Position numbers and translations under genes: made by a program. This document shows positions 34,364-45,250 of a stretch of DNA of 64,000 nt, piece by piece (within the stretch, counting starts at the first letter, position 1; every line of letters begins with the position of its first letter). Source of the stretch: an uncultured archaeon (GTDB taxonomy: Archaea; Asgardarchaeota; Thorarchaeia; Thorarchaeales; Thorarchaeaceae); contig CAZSWP010000015.1 of the NCBI GenBank assembly GCA_964610875.1, forward strand, positions 1 to 64,000. Reading direction: 5' to 3'. The notes under the pieces were generated by a model. The model did not search any database. It saw only the letters and a list, made by a program, of their open reading frames with translations, and was not told the origin of the DNA.

Positions 34364-34560
34364 TACGATATCTTTGCTTGTGAAGGTAAAGCTTAGACCT
34401 GCTGAGCTGTGTATCTATAAAAGGATTGCATAATGTCCACTGGAAGAGATTCCTTGTATGACTATCACAACTACCTTTTTTGCCTTAGCCTTAGCCTTAT
34501 CAACAATCTAAATTGAAATGATAGGTGCAATTAGTTAGTAAACACCCGGACGGAATTAAA

Positions 34561-35646
34561 ATGCCTGCACCATGTTACATCTGTGGCGCTGATGCGGAGA
34601 TTGAGAGTCTTTGTACAGAATGCTACAATAAAGAGCATCCCCTTGCTACAATCCAATCCGTTGTGTCCATTACTATCTGTAAGAAATGTGGTGCAATCAA
34701 AGTTCCTGGCGGATGGAAGACAATAGATGATGAAACTCAAAGTGATTCCGCAAGAGAAACTTATGTTGGTTATATTCTTCAAAAGGAGCTAAAGGTGACT
34801 GGAAATGATGTAGAGCTCTCAATTTTGGAGTCTAATCGCCTTGACCGCGTCTTACAACTTGAATTGATAGTCACAGGTCACTCTCATCCTGATATTTCTC
34901 CTCATACGGAAACACTACCATTAGAGGTTCGTTTTAACTATGCCACATGTGATACCTGCTCTATGATGAGTGGAGGCTATTATGAATCAACGCTTCAAAT
35001 AAGAGCTCAAGATCGTTTACTCTCCGATGATGAAAAGATACAGATTATCGAGATTGCACGAGAGAAGACATATGCAGAGTATGGTCGTGATGCAAAGGCT
35101 TTCATTTTGCAAATTGATGAGATTAAATTTGGTCTGGACCTGTTCATAGGATCTGAATCACTATGCAAAAAAATAGCAGATGAGATTCAGGCCTTGTTTC
35201 TTGCAGAACGGCAAGAAAATTACAAGCTAATTGGTCAAGAAAAGGGTGGTAAGGACAAGTTTCGAATTACTATTGTTCTCAGGTTGCCACGATTTTCAAT
35301 TGGCGACATTATCAAAGTCAAAGGCAATCTCTGCGAAGTGAGGGACCTTGGCAAAGGTGGACTCTCGTGTTTTGACCTAGAAAACAAGGGGATTTTTACA
35401 ATCTCTCAAAAGAGTGCAAAATGGAAGACAGTAGAGTTTGTTATGCCACAATCCGAGAAAAGAAAGTTCATGGTTGTTTCTAATGTATATGGGCAACCTG
35501 TTCAAATAATGGACTCGATGACTTATGAAACACGAGAAATACAGGTTGATGAATCCCATCGAGATAATTACGAGAACGGTTCAATAATAGAAGTTATAGA
35601 ATTTGAAAATCGAATATATCCAATACGTATGATTCCTAGAAAATGA
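34561..35646 (+). CDS. nmd3: NMD3 ribosome maturation protein
   Basis: CYICG, LCTEC, CKKCG, CDTCS, GYYESTLQIR. Confidence 0.92.
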   Translation: MPAPCYICGADAEIESLCTECYNKEHPLATIQSVVSITICKKCGAIKVPGGWKTIDDETQSDSARETYVGYILQKELKVTGNDVELSILESNRLDRVLQLELIVTGHSHPDISPHTETLPLEVRFNYATCDTCSMMSGGYYESTLQIRAQDRLLSDDEKIQIIEIAREKTYAEYGRDAKAFILQIDEIKFGLDLFIGSESLCKKIADEIQALFLAERQENYKLIGQEKGGKDKFRITIVLRLPRFSIGDIIKVKGNLCEVRDLGKGGLSCFDLENKGIFTISQKSAKWKTVEFVMPQSEKRKFMVVSNVYGQPVQIMDSMTYETREIQVDESHRDNYENGSIIEVIEFENRIYPIRMIPRK

Positions 35647-35743
35647 CCCACTATTCCGTGGTTTCGTTACTCTTAAATGGCTAGTCTATCACCTCATGTT
35701 AGATGCTGGGTAATACTCAGTTTTTACCAATTGGAGGATTATT

Positions 35744-36064
35744 TTGTCAAGAAGAGGTAAACAAACAGGAAATACAGAAGAGCTCACAAGAGTCCGAACA
35801 CCACGTAGAAACGAAGGTGAACTCTTTGGAATTATCATTCAAATGTTAGGACATGACCGTGTAAGAGTTCGTTGTGAAGATGGTAATATCCGAATTGGTA
35901 GAATTCCTGGTAAGTTCAAGAAAAGAGTCTGGATGCGCGTAGGCGATACAGTTCTAGTTGTACCCTGGGACTTTCAGACTGATGAAAAAGCAGATGTTGT
36001 ATGGCGCTACAGGAATAATGAAGTTGATTGGTTGAAAAAACGTGGCATCTTAAAGATGTTTTAA
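35744..36064 (+). CDS. eif1a: Translation initiation factor 1A
   Basis: MLGHDRVRVRCEDG, RIPGKFKKRVW, PWDFQ. Confidence 0.96.
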   Translation: MSRRGKQTGNTEELTRVRTPRRNEGELFGIIIQMLGHDRVRVRCEDGNIRIGRIPGKFKKRVWMRVGDTVLVVPWDFQTDEKADVVWRYRNNEVDWLKKRGILKMF

Positions 36065-36130
36065 ACCTTTTATCAACAAATTGTTCTATTATCATTGGTC
36101 AATTAATTGAGACCAAGGTGAAATCCCTAG

Positions 36131-36919
36131 TTGAAACGCGTTGAAACCAAGAAAAGGGTCATCGATGACGAGATTGAACGCCGTAAGATGAAACGGCGAT
36201 ATGACGTTGATGAGTTTAAAGTAGTTGAAGGAGTAATTGATCCTCCAACCCTAAAAGTATTGTACAAACTACTGAATAAGGGAACTTTACGAGCTGTTCA
36301 TGGAGTGATAAGCACAGGAAAGGAAGCAAATGTGTATCGTGGGGAAAACTTGGACCGAGAAGCGGTTGCTGTCAAGATTTACAGAATGTCAACTGCCGAA
36401 ACAGACTTCATGCGTGAATATATTGTAGGAGATCCACGTTTCAAACGAGTCGGAAAGAAAAACAGAGTTTTAATTCCTCAATGGGCAATGAAGGAATATA
36501 GGAATCTCAAGAGATATTTTGAATCTGAGGTAAAGGTTCCTGAACCCATTGACATCGAACGAAATGTTGTAGTAATGGAGTTTATCGGCGACTTGGAATC
36601 TAATCAACCCGCACCACTTCTGAAGAATGTAGTCTTGGAGGACCCTGTGGATGTCTTTGATGAGATTATTCATATGATTGATCTCAGCTATAACGAAGCA
36701 GGTCTGGTTCATGCTGATCTTAGTGAATTCAATATACTCTGGAACGGTGGCCCTGTCTTTATTGATGTTTCACAATCGGTTTTGACAATTCATGAGAATG
36801 CTAAAAGGTACCTCTATCGAGATATTCAAAACATAGTGTCTTATTTTACTAAGCTCGGAGTCGAAAAAGTAGACCCACTTGAAATTGCGAAACACATCAT
36901 ATCAAAGAGTGAAGAATAA
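36131..36919 (+). CDS. rio1: RIO1 serine protein kinase
   Basis: ISTGKEANVY, AVKIY, LVHADLSEFNIL, IDVSQ. Confidence 0.95.
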   Translation: MKRVETKKRVIDDEIERRKMKRRYDVDEFKVVEGVIDPPTLKVLYKLLNKGTLRAVHGVISTGKEANVYRGENLDREAVAVKIYRMSTAETDFMREYIVGDPRFKRVGKKNRVLIPQWAMKEYRNLKRYFESEVKVPEPIDIERNVVVMEFIGDLESNQPAPLLKNVVLEDPVDVFDEIIHMIDLSYNEAGLVHADLSEFNILWNGGPVFIDVSQSVLTIHENAKRYLYRDIQNIVSYFTKLGVEKVDPLEIAKHIISKSEE

Positions 36920-36920
36920 C

Positions 36921-37484
36921 ATGTATTTCCACGAAACCGTCAGAGTTCCAATGGAGCGTCTTGGTGTAATTGTAGGCCGAAATGGACGAGTACGAAAAAG
37001 AGTCGAAAAGCTAACAAACACCAAGCTTGACATATCTTCAGAGGGCATGGTTACAATAACGAGCCCAGAGAGTTCTGAAGATCCAGTATTAGCATGGAAA
37101 GCACGCGATATTGTTCGTGCAATGGCTAGGGGATTCAGCCCAAAGAAAGCTCTGAATCTCATCGACGAAGAAACACGCTTGATTGTGATTTCGTTACGTG
37201 AAATGGTGGGTAATTCGTCAAGTCAGTTGAAAAGAGTATCTGGACGAATAATTGGGGAAAATGGACGAACACGTCGGGTCATAGAACAAACTGCAGGCGT
37301 TTATATATCAATTTATGGAAAAACAGTTGCTCTTATTGGCATGGACCCTGGTCTGGATTATGCAACCAGAGCTGTTACTATGCTTATTGATGGAGCACCA
37401 CATTCTGCAGTCTACAAATATCTAGAGAAATCTCGAAGAAGGATGAACCGTCAAGAGGCAGAGCTCTGGGAAGACTCTCTATAG
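36921..37484 (+). CDS. KH-domain pre-rRNA processing protein (Dim2/Pno1)
   Basis: RLGVIVGRNG, RGFSP, GRIIGENGRTR, GAPHSAVY; aIF1A-Rio1-Dim2 synteny. Confidence 0.92.
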   Translation: MYFHETVRVPMERLGVIVGRNGRVRKRVEKLTNTKLDISSEGMVTITSPESSEDPVLAWKARDIVRAMARGFSPKKALNLIDEETRLIVISLREMVGNSSSQLKRVSGRIIGENGRTRRVIEQTAGVYISIYGKTVALIGMDPGLDYATRAVTMLIDGAPHSAVYKYLEKSRRRMNRQEAELWEDSL

Positions 37485-37540
37485 CTCAATGTAATACGCG
37501 CTCTGAAATGAGCTTATTGCTAACTAGTCTTGAATGTCTT

Positions 37541-39061
37541 ATGACCAGTTATTCGACGCGATATGAAATATACGATAGTATCTCCCCTGCAGAGTTTTTT
37601 TACAGAAATAAGCAGATGGCAGGCTTCAGTAATCCCTCACAAGCACTCTATACAACAGTCAGAGAACTTGTAGAGAACAGTCTTGATGCCTGCGAGGCTG
37701 CAGCTGTTTTCCCTGAACTTCAGATTAGCATTATCAGAAAAACATCTGATGAAATCAAAGTTCGTGTGGGTGATAATGGTTCAGGAGTTCCAGACGAACA
37801 AGTAGCATCTGCTTTTGGTCGAGTCCTCTATGGCAGCAAGTTCGAATCACGACAACGGAGAGGTACTTTCGGTCTTGGTGTCACAATGGCTGTTCTATAC
37901 GGTCAGATAACAACAAATCAGGCTGTTTCGATTCATACTAGGACTAAAAACACACTAGGCCAAAAATATACGCTCTTTATAGATATTGAAGCAAACAGAC
38001 CTATTCTCGATTCAAAAATACAACTGAAACGAAGAGAAACTGGAACTACAGTTTCCTTGTCGATGGTAGGTGACTTAGCCAGGTCAAAAGATCGGATTAT
38101 TGATTATTTACGGCTAACGACAGTTTCAAGTCCTCATGCAATGATAAAGCTAAACATAGATGATGGGGAACCCTTTATTTTTGGGTGCTACTCCTCCGCA
38201 CTCCCAAGCATTCCCCTTAGTACAAAACCGCATCCTCGTTCTGCTGATACTGAAACCATCAGAAGATTGGTAGATGAGAACCCTGGTCTAAAATTGAGAG
38301 ATTTCCTCATGCAATCATTTCAACAAGTAGGTAGAAAGGGGGCATCCCAATTTCTTCGATTCTATGGATTCGAACCAAGCAAAGTTGTTTCCCATTTGAG
38401 TCGGAAACAACTAACCCGGATATCTAATGCACTCCAACAATATGACAAATTTGGCCGTCCTGATGCCACATGTCTGAGTCCTATTGGAAAGAAGAACATC
38501 CAACAGTCGATAAAATCCCTGTATAACACTGATGTGGTGTACTATTCTTCCAGAGTACCAGCTGAATGGAGTGGTTGGCCATTTATAATTGAAGGCGCAC
38601 TAGTTATAGACAAGAGTTTACCTGCACAGGATTTTCCAACATTATACCGTTTTGCGAATCGTGTTCCCCTTCTATACGATACAAATGATGATATTCTTTA
38701 TCGTGCTTTGAAGAAAATATCCTGGAGCCGATATGGATTGGATTCTGATCATCCTACTGCAATATTTGTTCATTTTTGCTCAACAAGAGTACCCTACAAT
38801 GGTGCAGGGAAACAATCTATGGCATCGATGCCAGAGATTGAAACTGAAGCATCTCTCCTATTCAAAGAATTAGGCCGCAAGATGAAACGTGCCATTTCTA
38901 AACATCGGAATCTACAACGTGACAGAAGTCGCATGCTTCGCTTTGAGAAGAGCTTTAAACTGGTGGCTAAATACAGCTATCAACTTGCAGAAATTAGGAA
39001 ACGGCCTGATACTGGTGATATGATTACAAGTCTATTTAGGGATGATCAAGATGACAACTAA
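37541..39061 (+). CDS. top6B: DNA topoisomerase VI subunit B
   Basis: SPAEFFYRN, ELVENSLDA, DNGSG, LYGSK, RG..GLG, RFANRVPLLY. Confidence 0.93.
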   Translation: MTSYSTRYEIYDSISPAEFFYRNKQMAGFSNPSQALYTTVRELVENSLDACEAAAVFPELQISIIRKTSDEIKVRVGDNGSGVPDEQVASAFGRVLYGSKFESRQRRGTFGLGVTMAVLYGQITTNQAVSIHTRTKNTLGQKYTLFIDIEANRPILDSKIQLKRRETGTTVSLSMVGDLARSKDRIIDYLRLTTVSSPHAMIKLNIDDGEPFIFGCYSSALPSIPLSTKPHPRSADTETIRRLVDENPGLKLRDFLMQSFQQVGRKGASQFLRFYGFEPSKVVSHLSRKQLTRISNALQQYDKFGRPDATCLSPIGKKNIQQSIKSLYNTDVVYYSSRVPAEWSGWPFIIEGALVIDKSLPAQDFPTLYRFANRVPLLYDTNDDILYRALKKISWSRYGLDSDHPTAIFVHFCSTRVPYNGAGKQSMASMPEIETEASLLFKELGRKMKRAISKHRNLQRDRSRMLRFEKSFKLVAKYSYQLAEIRKRPDTGDMITSLFRDDQDDN

Positions 39062-40109
39062 CCAAGATGCAATTAGCAGGTTACAAGCCTTTGGAGTGGA
39101 AGTGGCTTCCAAGATTCAATCTGGTGAGTTTCCTGCAGTTGAAATTCCGGATAGGAATACAAGTAACATTGTTTATGATACAAAATTAGAGCAGTATGTA
39201 TTAGGGCCAAAAAAGAGTAGAAGGGAATCGGCAAATATCAGGCATGTTCATAGTTTTGCTCAGCTTACATGGGTTGCTGCATTTGCTAAAGACTTGCTTA
39301 TTTCTGGGAGAACAAGTTCTCTAAGGGACCTATACTATTCAAGTGAAGCATATGGTCTCAAATTCAAAGACCAACCTGAATCCAACCGAGTGGTTTCAGA
39401 TTTGGAATGCTTACTAGATATGTCCAGAGAAGACTTTGGTATTTTTCCTGAAGAACACTCTTCAATTTATGGAGAAGTCATAATGGAATATACGGTATCA
39501 GGATACGAGGGACGTAAAGTTGACCTCACAGTGAGTCCTGATGGTCTTCCCATCGGTCGTGCTCTAATGACAGCAAAACCTGTGTCAACAAATGCCAAAA
39601 TCATCCTAGCTGTTGAGTCTGGAGGCATGTTCTCACGCTTGATTGAAACTGAATCTTGGAAGGATATGAGCGCAGTACTGGTACATCTAGGTGGTCAGGC
39701 GCCTAGATCAACAAGACGCTTGCTGAAGTGCTTACATACAGAACTGAATTTGCCTGTCTATGTATTTACTGATGGCGATCCATGGGGTATGCACATTGCA
39801 CGAGTTATTATGTCTGGAAGTGCAAATGCTGCTCATGTTAAGGGTCTGTCCATACCGACTGCTAGGTGGATTGGAGTTACTGCCGCGGATATAAAGAAAC
39901 ACAATCTTCCAACAGAAGATATGAGTGACTATGATCTAAGAAGATTGGATGAGCTAACTAATGATATTCGATACTCATCAGAATTCTGGCAAAATCAGAT
40001 ACATAAATTCAAACAACTAAGAAAGAAAGCCGAACAGCAAGCTTTCAGTAGACATGGCATTGATTATGTGGTTGATTCATACTTGACCGATAAACTCTCT
40101 GCATTTTAG
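39042..40109 (+). CDS. top6A: DNA topoisomerase VI subunit A
   Basis: LRDLYY (catalytic Tyr), AVESGGMF, TDGDPWG, KAEQQA. Confidence 0.93.
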   Translation: MIKMTTNQDAISRLQAFGVEVASKIQSGEFPAVEIPDRNTSNIVYDTKLEQYVLGPKKSRRESANIRHVHSFAQLTWVAAFAKDLLISGRTSSLRDLYYSSEAYGLKFKDQPESNRVVSDLECLLDMSREDFGIFPEEHSSIYGEVIMEYTVSGYEGRKVDLTVSPDGLPIGRALMTAKPVSTNAKIILAVESGGMFSRLIETESWKDMSAVLVHLGGQAPRSTRRLLKCLHTELNLPVYVFTDGDPWGMHIARVIMSGSANAAHVKGLSIPTARWIGVTAADIKKHNLPTEDMSDYDLRRLDELTNDIRYSSEFWQNQIHKFKQLRKKAEQQAFSRHGIDYVVDSYLTDKLSAF

Positions 40110-40129: not shown

Positions 40130-41167
40130 TCATATCAGACCTGAGTTAAATGGATATGCGAACAGAAGCAGAAACAAACCCCCATACGCTATTAACGCCT
40201 GAAGAATCAGTAGAAGCATGACATTCTTCTTTTCAGTAATATTATCTGATAGCCATGGGAATAACCAATACATTGTGAATGGTCCTTCCACCTCCATAGT
40301 CCCATCATCTCTGGGCTTTGCGAATTTGACCCACTCTTTGCCTTTCCTTTTCACATAAACTCTGTATACCAAATACATTAGAAAATTGATACCAAAAGTG
40401 AAGTAAAGCACTATTGCCAGTCTGTCAAAGTTACCAAGAACAAGTGCTACTGCCATAGCTGCTCCAATTGGCAGTCTTCCTACATCTCCTGGCAAAACCT
40501 TTGCGGGATATCTGTTGAATATATAGAATGCCACAGTTGCCCCAAGCAGTGCTGCAGCAACGGTTGAAGCATCAATCTGGCTGGAGGAAATCTCTGCTCC
40601 TGTCATGACCGGTATCAGAATCACATAGATCACTAGAGATGAGGCATTTATAGCAGCAAGACCTGTTTCTAAACCATTCATTCCACCATACATGTTAGTA
40701 GAGTCAATAATGAACGTCATTATGAGTGGGACAATCACCAGTGGATATAGTATCCCTAAATCCAAGGTACCAATTATTGGAATGGACATTGTTGTTGTAC
40801 CAACATTCAATGCCATCATTGGAATTGAGGCAATGAGTGGCAATACTACCTTGGTTCTATTGCTAAAGTCTAAGGTGTCGTCCAATAATCCAATCATCCC
40901 CGCCATGAGTATTGAAACCAAAGCCGCAAGCAATCCTGGATTGATAATTAATTCCAAACCAAAAGTCCGTATTCCTATGCATACGAGAAGACTGGATACT
41001 ATTGCAAATAGCAGGATGTATCCTGCACCCTTCGGGACTTCAGGTCTATCTGGTTTATGAACATCAGTACCAGTTATCCCCTTTTCCCTGAGGGCCCTTA
41101 TGGTACCAGGCATTAGTAGAATTACCAATACAAATGAGAAAATCAATGCAATAGCAACTGTTATCAT
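40130..41167 (-). CDS. UDP-GlcNAc:dolichyl-phosphate GlcNAc-1-P transferase (GPT/Alg7/AglH type)
   Basis: GTDVHKP, GLLDD, NMYGGMNGLE, FNRYPAKVLPGDVG; multiple TMs. Confidence 0.88.
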   Translation of the reverse strand: MITVAIALIFSFVLVILLMPGTIRALREKGITGTDVHKPDRPEVPKGAGYILLFAIVSSLLVCIGIRTFGLELIINPGLLAALVSILMAGMIGLLDDTLDFSNRTKVVLPLIASIPMMALNVGTTTMSIPIIGTLDLGILYPLVIVPLIMTFIIDSTNMYGGMNGLETGLAAINASSLVIYVILIPVMTGAEISSSQIDASTVAAALLGATVAFYIFNRYPAKVLPGDVGRLPIGAAMAVALVLGNFDRLAIVLYFTFGINFLMYLVYRVYVKRKGKEWVKFAKPRDDGTMEVEGPFTMYWLFPWLSDNITEKKNVMLLLILQALIAYGGLFLLLFAYPFNSGLI

Positions 41168-41361
41168 TTCTATGACGCCTCTAGTTAGAGTTCTTTGACA
41201 TCAAACCCGTTTTACACTTTTCGGGAATTGTTTGTTAAAGGTTACAGTACATTATCTATTCTAACGGAAACTCTTTTAACGTCCCTGAAGCTGGACCGCA
41301 TCGTTCATGGGTCTGAGGCAATAGAATAACTCAGATTTATACCATCACATGGTGATTTGTA

Positions 41362-44322
41362 TTGAGCCTGCTGCATAGAAGAATCGCAACAATCGTGTTA
41401 CTGGCACTCTTTGTAACAAGTGGTGTCATGACAGCTTTTCCAGTAGTGGACTCTGGGGATTCCATACTTGCCACTAATGATATGAAACAAAACAGTATAC
41501 CATCCCAGTCAGTACTGAACGCATCTATCCCATATGTAGATGAGCATTATGGATATGCTGATGGAATAATTGATCCCACAGAGTATGCCTACACGTATAC
41601 TGATCTGGTATCTGGAATTACAGTATACCTTGAACATAATTCTTCTATTCTCTTTGTAGGCCTCTCTGCAAGGACTTCAGGCTGGATTGGAATCGGTTGG
41701 AAGAACTACACAGATGACTTCACCACTGAAGGTCTGAATGGTAGTGATTTAATATATGGCTATGCCCCTGGAACCCCTCATTCTCCAGTTATTAGAGTGA
41801 CAGGAGATGAACCAATCACCGTTCATTACATTCTCAAACTTAGAAATGGAACTGTTCTTGAAGAAGGTGATGTTCCAAATGATGAATCAACTACCCCCTT
41901 CAAAGAAGAAACGCTCTTATTACCGGATTATATTGATAACATTCTCGGAATGCGAATTGGTGAAATACGTAACTTCATAATTCCTGCTGAGATTGCATAT
42001 AATCAATCCACCCATCCATTGTATGGTGAAGATCTGGAATATATCGTAAAAGTGACGCGAATTGCCGAGTCTTTCCAGAATCCCGCAGACGCTAGTGAGA
42101 TCATATACAGTGAAGAATACGGGATTAGCACTTATCAACACCAAACCGATGACAATCAAAGTCAGGTTTTAGCATCTGGTGGTTCAGATGATGGCACAAA
42201 TACTCAACTTGAATATTTCATACAGATGAATTCCACAGACATCCAAGACGTTCCACTTCTGAATGATAGTGAAATTAGTTATCCCCTTATGCTGCTATAT
42301 AGTGATAGTGAGGATATAACGCAAATACCCACACAACACAATGATTGGGCAAATCCACTTGGAGTCATATTCATTCCAAATGCAGCTCCTGAGATCACAT
42401 TCGAGACCCCGATTCAAGATGGCACATATGACTGGATTTTGAAAATATCTGCAAATGTTACTGACAATTCATGGATTCGAAGGGCGTTCTATAAAGTTGA
42501 TGATGAAAACTGGACGGAGATCTTCTATAAATTCAAAACTGACCTCTGGGAAACACAAATTGACCTCTCCAGTTATGTCACTGGATTACACACTGTGTGG
42601 CTTAATGCAACAGATCCTTCTAATGTGACAAGTATTAACAGTGTGAATATATCCGTCGACCGACCTTACCAACCCCTTCTTGGAATGAGGCTTGATGTTG
42701 TTCGAACAGTATATACTAAACTCTATCATCTGACAGAGATTGTTGATACTTTTACCATAGAAAACAACGGATCTGTAGTGATTAATTCAATTGACATATA
42801 TCTTCCAGAGAACTGGTATAATTACCAAATGTCAATCTCCGCCGAGGGTGAAGATGAAACTGTTCTAAAGATACTGGATTTGGGTTTGGAAAATGGGATG
42901 AGGAATTGGAAAATATTCCTTGCTGAAGGCGTCAATTTTGGCGAGTCTTATACACTAACCATCGTAACATTCTACCACTCTCTCCATACACTTACTGACT
43001 ATGATAATGAAATCTATGAGGTTTGTTACCTTCGATACCCTGTGGTTCCATATGTCTTACGCCGTGCTCAGTTAGGTGTTGAATTCAGAAGTGGTGATAG
43101 TCTAAATGGCGAAAGTCCTGAAGGTCTTGAAACCAACATTGCACCAATGGAGGTTGAGGAGGTAACAATGTCTATCAAGTCATTTACGCCTGTAATAGTA
43201 GCTGATCGTCACACTGAAGTAAAAATTGACCCATGGGGTTGGTTAAACTACCACGAAACAATCACGCTTCGAAACATAGGTCCTACAAGAGAGCTCACGT
43301 TATCCTTCAATATACCTGAAGGTTCTACTACCATCAAGATATATGATAAGGTAGGAATTCTTGCGAAATCTCAACCTGGTGGTACATGGTACACAAATGA
43401 AACGGTTACTCTGCAAATCGACCTTAGAAGCGATCGTTTTGGGCAGGATGCTCTCTTACCCAATTATCAATACACATTCAACATCGATTATACCATGGAA
43501 CTCTCAACTTATCAAACTCCTGTAATCTCTGGCACAAAACTGAATCTACCAATGGCAACACTTGGGGAAGTCCTGATAGAGAAGCACATTGTTGATGCCA
43601 TATTATCATATTCTGTAGCAACAGTTGAAGCTAGTGATGGTTATCGACTGTTATATGGTGTATTTGACAACACTCTTCGTTATACATACCATAATACCAC
43701 CAACCAGAATCCTCCCGATATCTACATTGTTTACCAAACCTCTTTGTTGTCCAGTTCCCGTCCATTAGCTTTTAGCCTAATTTTTGGTCTAATTGCTATC
43801 ATCTATGTCGGATATAGAGCGTTCAACCCCCCTGTTGATAAGAGTCTAATCAGTAGAAAGGATGACGAAGATGAGGTTGGTCGCGTGAGTGGAGCTCCCC
43901 CTGACCTTCTCAGCACTTTCGCTAGTTTATATTCTAGAAAAACTGCACTTAATTTGGACATGGAAAAACTTGAAGCTTCCAGACGTCGTGGTAAAGTGAG
44001 TAAGAAAGAGTATATGATTCGTGAGCGTGATTTGAAATCACAGATTGATGAAGTGGAATCGGAATTGCCAGAGATGAAAGAGAAGCTGATATCTTATGGT
44101 CCTAAATACCGTGACATGATTGCACAACTCGAGCTCCAAAATGAGCGCATTGAAGGTGCTAAGGCTGGACTTAGACAACTGCTACTCCGCAAGAAGAAAC
44201 AGAAAATCAGTCGTGTAGCCTTTGAAAAGTCACGTCAAGACTATCTCAAGACAATCAAGAAAGCAACAAGTGCAACGGATAGAATGCTTCTTTCCATCCA
44301 AGAAGAAGCAGGAGACATATAA
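41362..44322 (+). CDS. Ribophorin I (Ost1)-like membrane protein fused to DOMON-like, FKBP-like and Ig-like domains
   Basis: Signal peptide; GWIGIGW/GSDLIYGY (DOMON); ITVHY..L.NG...LGMRIGEIRNFIIPAEIAY...LYGEDLEYIVKV (FKBP); RHTEVKIDPWGWLNYHETITLRN (ribophorin I-like); single TM; cytosolic coiled coil. Confidence 0.75.
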   Translation: MSLLHRRIATIVLLALFVTSGVMTAFPVVDSGDSILATNDMKQNSIPSQSVLNASIPYVDEHYGYADGIIDPTEYAYTYTDLVSGITVYLEHNSSILFVGLSARTSGWIGIGWKNYTDDFTTEGLNGSDLIYGYAPGTPHSPVIRVTGDEPITVHYILKLRNGTVLEEGDVPNDESTTPFKEETLLLPDYIDNILGMRIGEIRNFIIPAEIAYNQSTHPLYGEDLEYIVKVTRIAESFQNPADASEIIYSEEYGISTYQHQTDDNQSQVLASGGSDDGTNTQLEYFIQMNSTDIQDVPLLNDSEISYPLMLLYSDSEDITQIPTQHNDWANPLGVIFIPNAAPEITFETPIQDGTYDWILKISANVTDNSWIRRAFYKVDDENWTEIFYKFKTDLWETQIDLSSYVTGLHTVWLNATDPSNVTSINSVNISVDRPYQPLLGMRLDVVRTVYTKLYHLTEIVDTFTIENNGSVVINSIDIYLPENWYNYQMSISAEGEDETVLKILDLGLENGMRNWKIFLAEGVNFGESYTLTIVTFYHSLHTLTDYDNEIYEVCYLRYPVVPYVLRRAQLGVEFRSGDSLNGESPEGLETNIAPMEVEEVTMSIKSFTPVIVADRHTEVKIDPWGWLNYHETITLRNIGPTRELTLSFNIPEGSTTIKIYDKVGILAKSQPGGTWYTNETVTLQIDLRSDRFGQDALLPNYQYTFNIDYTMELSTYQTPVISGTKLNLPMATLGEVLIEKHIVDAILSYSVATVEASDGYRLLYGVFDNTLRYTYHNTTNQNPPDIYIVYQTSLLSSSRPLAFSLIFGLIAIIYVGYRAFNPPVDKSLISRKDDEDEVGRVSGAPPDLLSTFASLYSRKTALNLDMEKLEASRRRGKVSKKEYMIRERDLKSQIDEVESELPEMKEKLISYGPKYRDMIAQLELQNERIEGAKAGLRQLLLRKKKQKISRVAFEKSRQDYLKTIKKATSATDRMLLSIQEEAGDI

Positions 44323-44407: not shown

Positions 44408-45250
44408 ATGAATGATCAAGATATTAAACGAGATGAAATAAGTGCAAAAGAATTTCTGAAAACTAGCACAAAAGCATTAGAGATGTATCAATACCTCAGT
44501 GGCTCTCCCCGTGTACAATCATATCTCAGAACAGCAAATCGAATGGCGGTATCTAGGTTAGGTTATACTGACCATGGTCCTGTTCATGCAGAAGTCGCAA
44601 CTTGGTATGCTCTAAAAGCATTTGATATCCTTGATGAAACATTCATGCCAAATGTAGTGGCAGAAGGTATTGGTGACACAGATGATGCCAGATTAGTAGT
44701 ACTCTCATCTACATATCTCCACGACATTGGCATGGTTATTCACAGAACAGAACATAATCAAGGTGCTATACAGCTTGCAGCACCAATTTTAGAAAAGAAA
44801 CTGAACCAACTCTATGATAATCCTGGGACAGCAACTGACATTCTATCAGCTATCTTTCATGGCATATTTGCTCATGATGATGACACACAATGTCTGACCT
44901 TCGAGGCAGGTATAACGAAAATCGGGGATGGTTGTGATATGACAAAAGGAAGAACGGTAGTACCTTTCCAGCAAGGAAAAGTTGACATCCATAGTGTGAG
45001 TGCTATGGCCATACGAAATGTGCATCTCGAAAAAGGTGAGAACATTCCCTTAGAGATAACAGTCGCAATGGATAATCCAGCTGGTGTTTTTCAAGTTGAA
45101 GCCGTTCTTATGAAGAAACTATCTACAAGTGGTTTAGAGGACCACGTAAAAGTTAAGGTGCAAGTCAATGGCGAGCGTCTCTTACTGTCCCAGGTAAAAC
45201 GCTTGCATCGTGACAAATTGGAAGCAGTAGTAGCTGAGTCCAGAGAATAG
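44408..45250 (+). CDS. HD-domain phosphohydrolase
   Basis: LGYTDHGPVH, YLHDIG, AHD, D..DMTKGR, DIHSVS. Confidence 0.88.
   Translation: MNDQDIKRDEISAKEFLKTSTKALEMYQYLSGSPRVQSYLRTANRMAVSRLGYTDHGPVHAEVATWYALKAFDILDETFMPNVVAEGIGDTDDARLVVLSSTYLHDIGMVIHRTEHNQGAIQLAAPILEKKLNQLYDNPGTATDILSAIFHGIFAHDDDTQCLTFEAGITKIGDGCDMTKGRTVVPFQQGKVDIHSVSAMAIRNVHLEKGENIPLEITVAMDNPAGVFQVEAVLMKKLSTSGLEDHVKVKVQVNGERLLLSQVKRLHRDKLEAVVAESRE

Follow-up and report, generated by a model that had tools for sequence, protein, structure and literature searches.

The gene at positions 41362-44322 (+) of the window, by which the whole 64,000-nucleotide stretch of Thorarchaeial DNA is meant throughout, has been found to encode the sole ribophorin I/OST1 orthologue of its genome, and residues 436-986 of the 986-amino-acid (aa) product constitute a complete ribophorin I, a subunit of the oligosaccharyltransferase (OST). 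Ahead of this unit lies an extension in which an FKBP-type domain is nested in a DOMON beta-sandwich and followed by an immunoglobulin (Ig)-like spacer domain, an arrangement that we write as DOMON[FKBP]-Ig and call the N-module. Among the eukaryotic signature proteins of Asgard archaea is ribophorin I, to which one whole Asgard lineage has added a domain of the foldase type and a putatively ligand-binding sandwich. The extension offers a testable hypothesis for the role of archaeal ribophorin I, namely the handling of nascent glycoprotein substrates beside the catalytic subunit. The nesting of an FKBP within a DOMON is a previously unremarked domain architecture, and a literature search has returned no paper describing the DOMON[FKBP]-Ig-ribophorin I fusion.

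Read from the N-terminus, the protein consists of a signal peptide, the DOMON beta-sandwich with the nested FKBP, the Ig-like domain, the ribophorin I/OST1 unit with two lumenal beta-sandwiches and one transmembrane (TM) segment, and a cytosolic four-helix bundle. The coordinates of these parts in the window are as follows:

41362..44322, + strand: whole DOMON[FKBP]-Ig-ribophorin I/OST1 gene, a single 986-aa open reading frame (ORF) with more than 200 full-length homologue clusters
41362..41442, + strand: N-terminal signal peptide or anchor, residues 1-27, counted from the TTG start and placed by hydrophobic residues 7-27 and by the homologue N-termini
41521..41781, + strand: N-terminal half of the DOMON domain, residues ~54-140, placed by VIA-align matches and by BLASTP at 30-40% identity
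41782..42075, + strand: FKBP-type domain nested in a loop of the DOMON, residues ~141-238, placed by Pfam FKBP_C, profile and structure
42076..42378, + strand: C-terminal half of the DOMON domain, residues ~239-339, where the DOMON structural matches resume after the FKBP
42379..42666, + strand: Ig-like (Big_7-type) domain, residues ~340-435, placed by Big_7 matches in 25/31 members and a structural Z of about 10-11
42667..43743, + strand: lumenal region of ribophorin I/OST1, two beta-sandwiches, residues 436-794, with a conserved DPWGW motif, placed by Foldseek, Pfam and profile matches
43744..43824, + strand: single TM helix, residues ~795-821, placed by the AlphaFold2 model (model residues 360-386) and the hydropathy scan
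43900..44307, + strand: cytosolic bundle of four helices, residues ~847-982, a homologue of the C-domain of OST1/RPN1 that binds the ribosome, placed by the 8WHN match and the model

The 986 codons run without interruption in one ORF from a TTG start codon at 41362. The database gene call P0002 (975 aa) begins 11 codons further on, at GTG 41395, a start that would truncate the signal peptide; TTG has been taken as the right start because full-length homologues begin with MSLLHRRIATI, in agreement with the residues that follow it. These homologues form more than 200 clusters in the protein database at 47-58% identity, mostly labelled as Thorarchaeota metagenome-assembled genomes (MAGs), and carry public names such as 'FKBP-type peptidyl-prolyl cis-trans isomerase' or 'Ig-like domain-containing protein'. 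As public annotation uses these FKBP and Ig-like names, surveys based on names or on Pfam thresholds could score Thorarchaeia as devoid of ribophorin I or miss the fusion.

A complete ribophorin I at the C-terminus

The C-terminal 551 aa have been modelled with AlphaFold2 from 31 family sequences (pLDDT 87). In the model, two beta-sandwiches are followed by a TM helix, from which a short disordered linker leads to four long helices at residues 847-875, 881-910, 914-946 and 951-982. When this model is compared with the PDB by Foldseek, the eight best matches are human and yeast RPN1/Ost1 chains (8B6L, 6S7O, 8PN9, 7OCI, 6EZN, 8AGB, 6S7T and 6C26; E 3e-30 to 2e-19), and the next fold is that of integrin at E 5e-8. 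The tail matches PDB 8WHN with E 1.8e-6 as a single sequence and 2.4e-10 as a family profile. In this crystal structure, the cytoplasmic domain of OST1 from Prometheoarchaeum MK-D1 forms a bundle of four helices, which has been shown to pull down ribosomes (PMC11417166). The cytosolic part, which the original prediction had taken for a coiled coil of ~150 aa, has therefore to be described as an OST1-type bundle.

The lumenal part has been traced through the family. Pfam Ribophorin_I is reached by 5 of the 31 family members (~50% identity), colinearly over profile positions 14-437, and the family profile retrieves 431 proteins among 1.8 billion representatives, most of which are 550-620 aa long and matched end-to-end. 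Profile matches that were sampled come from Odinarchaeia, Heimdallarchaeota and Promethearchaeota MAGs, eight out of ten passing Pfam Ribophorin_I. An alignment with these canonical Asgard ribophorins is colinear throughout and keeps a P-W-G motif, so that the likeness of the KIDPWG sequence to Rpn1 that had been pointed out earlier is indeed part of a conserved element. A mixed profile of Thorarchaeial and canonical Asgard sequences (A3) matches human RPN1 over residues 35-604 with E 6.5e-37; the profile from Thorarchaeial sequences only (A1) has reached 8WHN in the PDB and not the lumenal part of RPN1. Taken together with the Foldseek, 8WHN and family Pfam matches, this substantiates the ribophorin I identity that had been proposed from the letters of the window. 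Residues 436-986 are colinear with the whole of human RPN1, yeast Ost1 and MK-D1 OST1 (8WHN; Pfam PF04597), with which they have in common a pair of lumenal beta-sandwiches, the P-W-G motif, a single TM and the four-helix bundle. In contrast to canonical ribophorin I, the protein carries an additional ~410-residue N-terminal DOMON[FKBP]-Ig extension, which is absent from the matched human RPN1 and yeast Ost1 chains and has not been found on the 566-710-aa ribophorins of the other sampled Asgard families. The genome itself holds a single ribophorin match and no second copy, and it also encodes STT3 and OST3/6.

According to the hydropathy scan, the protein possesses two hydrophobic segments, at residues ~7-27 (N-terminal signal) and ~795-821 (TM). 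The topology is of type I, with a single TM after the lumenal region, the N-terminal signal, and all N-x-S/T sequons located N-terminally of the TM. These sequons number 17, every one in the ectodomain and none in the cytosolic part, compared with 7.6 +/- 2.4 in shuffled sequences, of which 0 out of 2000 reached 17; twelve are kept in at least 90 of 121 homologues. The richness in sequons was a feature of the original prediction that the shuffles have made quantitative, and the 986-aa protein itself is, judged from these motifs, probably heavily N-glycosylated. Likewise, the signal peptide, both DOMON halves, the FKBP insert, the Ig-like domain, the ribophorin I region and the one TM have all been recovered within a few residues of where they had been predicted.

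The nested N-terminal module

The N-terminal extension has been modelled separately (residues 28-440, pLDDT 82.5). Foldseek on this three-domain model was muddled by multi-domain Ig matches, and the domains have been resolved with VIA-align. The best matches are DOMON-type beta-sandwiches, namely ethylbenzene dehydrogenase (EBDH) gamma (Z 16.0), NxrC (Z 15.0), the DOMON of dopamine beta-hydroxylase (DBH; Z 13.4), CBM9 (Z 12.8) and the cytochrome of cellobiose dehydrogenase (CDH; Z 12.6). These alignments cover model residues ~27-312 yet use only 140-177 residues, and the best ESM Atlas match is likewise a DOMON cluster that superimposes 164 residues over residues 31-314 with a root-mean-square deviation (rmsd) of 2.1; the ESM Atlas feature search gave no usable match. 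The stretch skipped by the DOMON alignments (model residues 114-211) fits FKBPs, with Z 12.1 for SlyD and 11.2 for FKBP2 at rmsd 2.0-2.1, and is 33% identical to Thermus SlyD over 84 aligned residues (rmsd 2.0). Pfam FKBP_C recognises the query directly (E 3.2e-5, 24.6 bits at a cut-off of 21.1) as well as 31 out of 31 sampled family members, and the family profile finds FKBPs in the PDB with E 1e-7. Behind the second half of the sandwich, model residues 313-408 fit Ig/FN3/PKD-like modules with Z of about 10-11; Big_7 (PF17957) reaches only E 0.14 with the query alone and is matched by 25 of the 31 members, at best with E 4.7e-9.

The DOMON assignment is supported by sequence as well. Pfam DOMON has no match in the query and reaches 7 of the 31 members below threshold (best E 5.8e-5), and BLASTP against Pfam-positive, uninterrupted Asgard DOMON proteins gives E 5e-11 and 7e-13 at 30-40% identity, with both halves aligned and the FKBP skipped. 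The gap between the two halves measures about 20 residues in one of these relatives (L019) and about 126 here. These proteins, which in sequence come closest to the split DOMON, are encoded at L018:949-2664 in genome G102 and at L019:958-2130 in genome G025; they are secreted and contain one or two DOMONs without interruption. The splitting of a DOMON by an FKBP insert, as it had been anticipated, is hence borne out in the structure matches and in sequence, and the ribophorin, DOMON, FKBP and Ig folds are all recovered.

With regard to known proteins, the fold is shared with the DOMON superfamily (PF03351; DBH DOMON, CDH cytochrome, CBM9 and EB_dh; Z 12.6-16), whereas the domain described here is interrupted by an FKBP of ~100 residues, carries Leu or Ile in place of a Met of its relatives, and lacks a direct Pfam match in the query. 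Compared with SlyD and the short archaeal FKBPs, the insert has no insert-in-flap (IF) domain, is extracytoplasmic, and takes part in a reversed nesting in which the FKBP is the guest and the DOMON the host. A similar general design is found in SurA, PrsA and trigger factor, foldases in which a peptidyl-prolyl isomerase (PPIase) domain is nested in a binding domain.

Distribution of the fusion and of its N-terminal module

The survey has comprised 301 species-representative genomes of the phylum, 76 of which belong to the same GTDB family as the window, one to a sister family and 224 to other Asgard archaea. A complete N-module has been observed in 73/76 own-family genomes and in the one sister-family genome, with one copy each and frames of about 985-1034 aa where they are uncut; the 224 other Asgard genomes have given only single-domain matches to it, so that among the sampled genomes the architecture has been found nowhere else in full length. 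The ribophorin part has been found in 211 of the 301 genomes, with long frames only in the own and the sister family and 566-710 aa elsewhere. Nearly all sampled family genomes show a single ribophorin match; in the few that show two, these are fragments cut off by contig ends.

These frames also decide upon an assembly or gene-calling artefact that would have joined two genes, the probability of which we regard as negligible and in favour of which nothing has been found: such a fusion has been ruled out by the same uninterrupted frames in the 73 own-family genomes and the sister-family genome, with the ribophorin part in these same long frames, and the more than 200 protein clusters of the long form come from contigs of up to 1.5 Mb. 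The fusion is consequently real, old at the order level and a lineage-specific gain. The long form having been found only in the own and the sister family, its distribution argues against its being an ancestor of the system in the endoplasmic reticulum (ER), and the earlier suggestion of a possible precursor of ER-type glycoprotein folding control has not been supported, canonical ribophorins of 566-710 aa being found in the other sampled Asgard families that possess a ribophorin I.

The DOMON[FKBP]-Ig cassette is not restricted to ribophorin I. The same genome encodes a paralogue, P0305 (595 aa; contig C23:20695-21873, locus L005), which is 39% identical to the N-module. It begins with a signal peptide and DOMON[FKBP], continues with Ig and an additional PKD-like domain, and ends, after a linker rich in Thr and Ser, in a C-terminal TM anchor in place of ribophorin I. 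At least five more clusters share this architecture, similar proteins being P0294, P0295, P0297, P0300 and P0307, and the TM-anchored paralogue has been seen in only 2 of 77 sampled family genomes. Because the same cassette also occurs on a plain TM anchor, these proteins suggest that it works as a self-contained extracytoplasmic unit. A search for a free-standing N-module outside Thorarchaeota gave only fragments and the family of TM-anchored paralogues. In a tree of the N-module, in which many forks are unresolved, the TM-anchored paralogues fall on long branches among the long forms of the own family, and the sister-family long form lies outside.

Possible function and gene neighbourhood

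By analogy, the extension is best read as a parallel to partners that the eukaryotic machinery brings in as separate proteins, malectin in the case of ribophorin I (PMC9144812) and FKBP11 in that of OST-A (PMC12804085). Eukaryotes profit from both kinds of accessory at this site, albeit in trans. FKBP11 sits at the mammalian Sec61/OST-A translocon (PMC12804085) and, as the present protein would, combines an extracytoplasmic or lumenal FKBP at the OST-translocon with a cytosolic element that contacts the ribosome (PDB 9N9J/9YGY; PMC12804085); its structure is among the structural matches of the N-module, with Z 10.2. However, FKBP11 is a separate single-pass protein that is recruited non-covalently, whereas the FKBP described here is covalently joined to ribophorin I in one chain, inside a DOMON. 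Malectin binds ribophorin I in the ER quality control of animals and plants, and likewise places a beta-sandwich ligand-binding domain on the lumenal side of ribophorin I (PMC9144812), but it belongs to a different fold family and binds in trans, and glycan binding by the DOMON is only putative. The likeness to FKBP11 and malectin is an analogy, and common descent of the arrangement is not indicated; the extension would represent a natural in-cis counterpart of the associations that FKBP11 forms with OST-A, and malectin with ribophorin I, in the ER. We give a somewhat better than even chance to a ribophorin I whose extension is a foldase or holdase tethered at the OST site. In such a protein, the cytosolic bundle would keep the ribosome at the Sec/OST site during translation, in the manner of eukaryotic OST-A and of Prometheoarchaeum MK-D1, and the lumenal domains would pack against AglB/STT3. 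The extension would place the peptide-binding pocket of the FKBP, with a ligand-binding beta-sandwich at its side, immediately beyond the membrane at the point where nascent chains come out and receive their glycans, and would there serve glycoproteins, both secreted and of the surface, as a tethered foldase or holdase.

Several observations weigh against a tethered foldase of this kind. In the Pfam/NCBIfam scan of the 986-aa query only FKBP_C has passed, Ribophorin_I and DOMON giving no match, and PF04597 had no match anywhere in the genome; since family and structure searches did find both domains, these misses reflect a limit of sensitivity and not absence. The ribophorin gene is not adjacent to STT3. 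The STT3/AglB of the genome appears to be split over two contig ends (C32:44722-45216, L001, 196 aa, 3'-open; C89:5679-6476, L002, 739 aa, 5'-open), and an OST3/6-like match (C32:40311-40631, L020) is located some 4 kb upstream of the fragment on C32; STT3 and OST3/6 are therefore clustered on another contig, away from ribophorin I. The pocket of the insert has been mapped through HMMER alignments onto that of FKBP12, which we take to be formed by Y26, F36, D37, F46, V55, I56, W59, Y82 and F99. It departs from FKBP12 at several of these positions, F36 being replaced by L/I, D37 by Q/E, W59 by an invariant Y and F99 by Y, with the F46 region aligning ambiguously. The substitution of active-site aromatics that the original prediction had noticed is thus evident (W59 to Y, F99 to Y, F36 to L/I), and because of this departure catalysis by the insert has to be regarded as uncertain. 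Finally, for FKBP11, functionally the nearest parallel, the authors of the study argue for an adaptor with a buried site and not for an isomerase (PMC12804085).

As these authors favour an adaptor over a catalytic role, a rival explanation stays alive in which the same ribophorin I orthologue carries a non-catalytic scaffold: the N-module would recruit a factor, contact the S-layer or envelope, or extend the subunit, and the FKBP would serve only as an interaction surface. The replaced pocket residues would be compatible with this, as would the richness of the module in sequons, resembling a surface protein, and its occurrence in proteins that have a simple TM anchor and additional Ig/PKD-like domains. 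On the other hand, the pocket positions, to which Y156, Y190, Y213, Y227 and the G196-E201 stretch belong, are among the most conserved of the family. The equivalents of FKBP12 Y26 and Y82 are kept and invariant; in 121 homologues, Y156, L158, P172, Y190, G196-M-R-x-G-E201, A209, Y213, G222 and L225 do not vary, and Y221 and Y227 are near-invariant (Y in 120/121 and 115/121, respectively). The substitutions are conservative and fixed and, as far as the aligned residues can tell, fit a functional peptide-binding pocket without establishing catalysis. Moreover, the insert approaches SlyD, an active PPIase-chaperone, to the identity given above. Considering both sides, we judge the pure scaffold to be rather unlikely, albeit a serious competitor. 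A stronger version of the tethered foldase may tentatively be put forward as well, for which we see a possible though doubtful case: a co-translocational glycoprotein folding station of Thorarchaeia, in which an FKBP active as a catalyst or as a chaperone and a DOMON that reads glycans or peptides would be united in a ribosome-holding OST subunit, as an independent in-cis counterpart of the recruitment of FKBP11 and malectin by the ER. If it were true, a prokaryote would physically link translocation to N-glycosylation and to assisted folding.

Two further alternatives concern the nature of the DOMON and the membership in the OST. The top structural matches EBDH gamma, NxrC and CDH cytochrome bind haem, and some His residues are conserved (H92, H260 and H326), which would be in line with a haem-b cytochrome domain as in CDH and EBDH gamma and with an extension that acts as an extracytoplasmic redox module. 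However, non-haem members such as the DBH DOMON and CBM9 score similarly. The uninterrupted Asgard relatives at L018 and L019 have retained a Met within their 'MDG(S/A)N' motif, which we presume, as in cytochrome-type DOMONs, to be the axial haem ligand; the aligned position is occupied by L in 108, I in 12 and V in one of the 121 homologues, and the Met-equivalent site has been turned into a conserved sequon (N126 in 117/121). A haem-binding DOMON has accordingly been judged unlikely, as the presumed ligand is replaced in 121/121, provided that this Met is the ligand; we consider the redox module very improbable, and the DOMON would more likely bind a glycan or a polypeptide than haem. The other alternative, which we hold to be improbable to a lesser degree, is a descendant of ribophorin I that has left the OST and now acts on its own at the surface, for instance as an adhesin or a receptor, while keeping the ancestral fold. 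The gene is unlinked to STT3 or OST3/6, and a large extracellular extension is unusual in an OST subunit. Against a departure from the OST, the protein is the only ribophorin homologue of its own genome and, as seen in the survey, of nearly all sampled family genomes; conservation is strong throughout the ribophorin unit, with a mean column identity of 61% and the ribosome-binding tail as its best-conserved part, and the conserved neighbour of the gene is the first enzyme of N-glycan assembly.

This neighbour and the spacer that separates it from the ribophorin gene have been located in the window as follows:

40130..41167, - strand: AglH/Alg7-type polyprenyl-phosphate GlcNAc-1-P transferase (GT4 family), placed by Pfam Glycos_transf_4 with E 3.5e-28
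41168..41361, no strand: divergent intergenic spacer of 194 bp between the transferase and the ribophorin gene, read from the sequence

The best relatives of the GT4 transferase in the PDB are human DPAGT1/ALG7 (E 2.3e-17), ahead of MraY (1e-9). Its head-to-head arrangement with the ribophorin gene is kept at two distant homologue loci, and the order NMD3-eIF1A-RIO1-KH-TopoVIB-TopoVIA-(GT4, opposite strand)-ribophorin-288-aa gene recurs in a Thorarchaeial contig of 1.5 Mb and around the gene of the divergent long form P0271. In the window, positions 34525-40109 upstream of the glycosylation pair hold NMD3, an eIF1A-like gene (a label that does not come from a scan made here), RIO1 kinase, a KH/KRR1-like gene and topoisomerase VI B and A. 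Within the spacer, TTTATA at 41336-41341 lies about 24 nt upstream of the TTG; it is a mere consensus resemblance and hints at a leaderless or near-leaderless transcript. Downstream, 86 bp behind the ribophorin gene, 44408-45250 (+) encodes a soluble protein of 280 aa, and a gene for 288-289 aa holds the same place at two distant homologue loci. The 280-aa protein has been considered as an OST partner and rejected, being soluble and showing a weak, sub-threshold HD-domain match (E 0.019).

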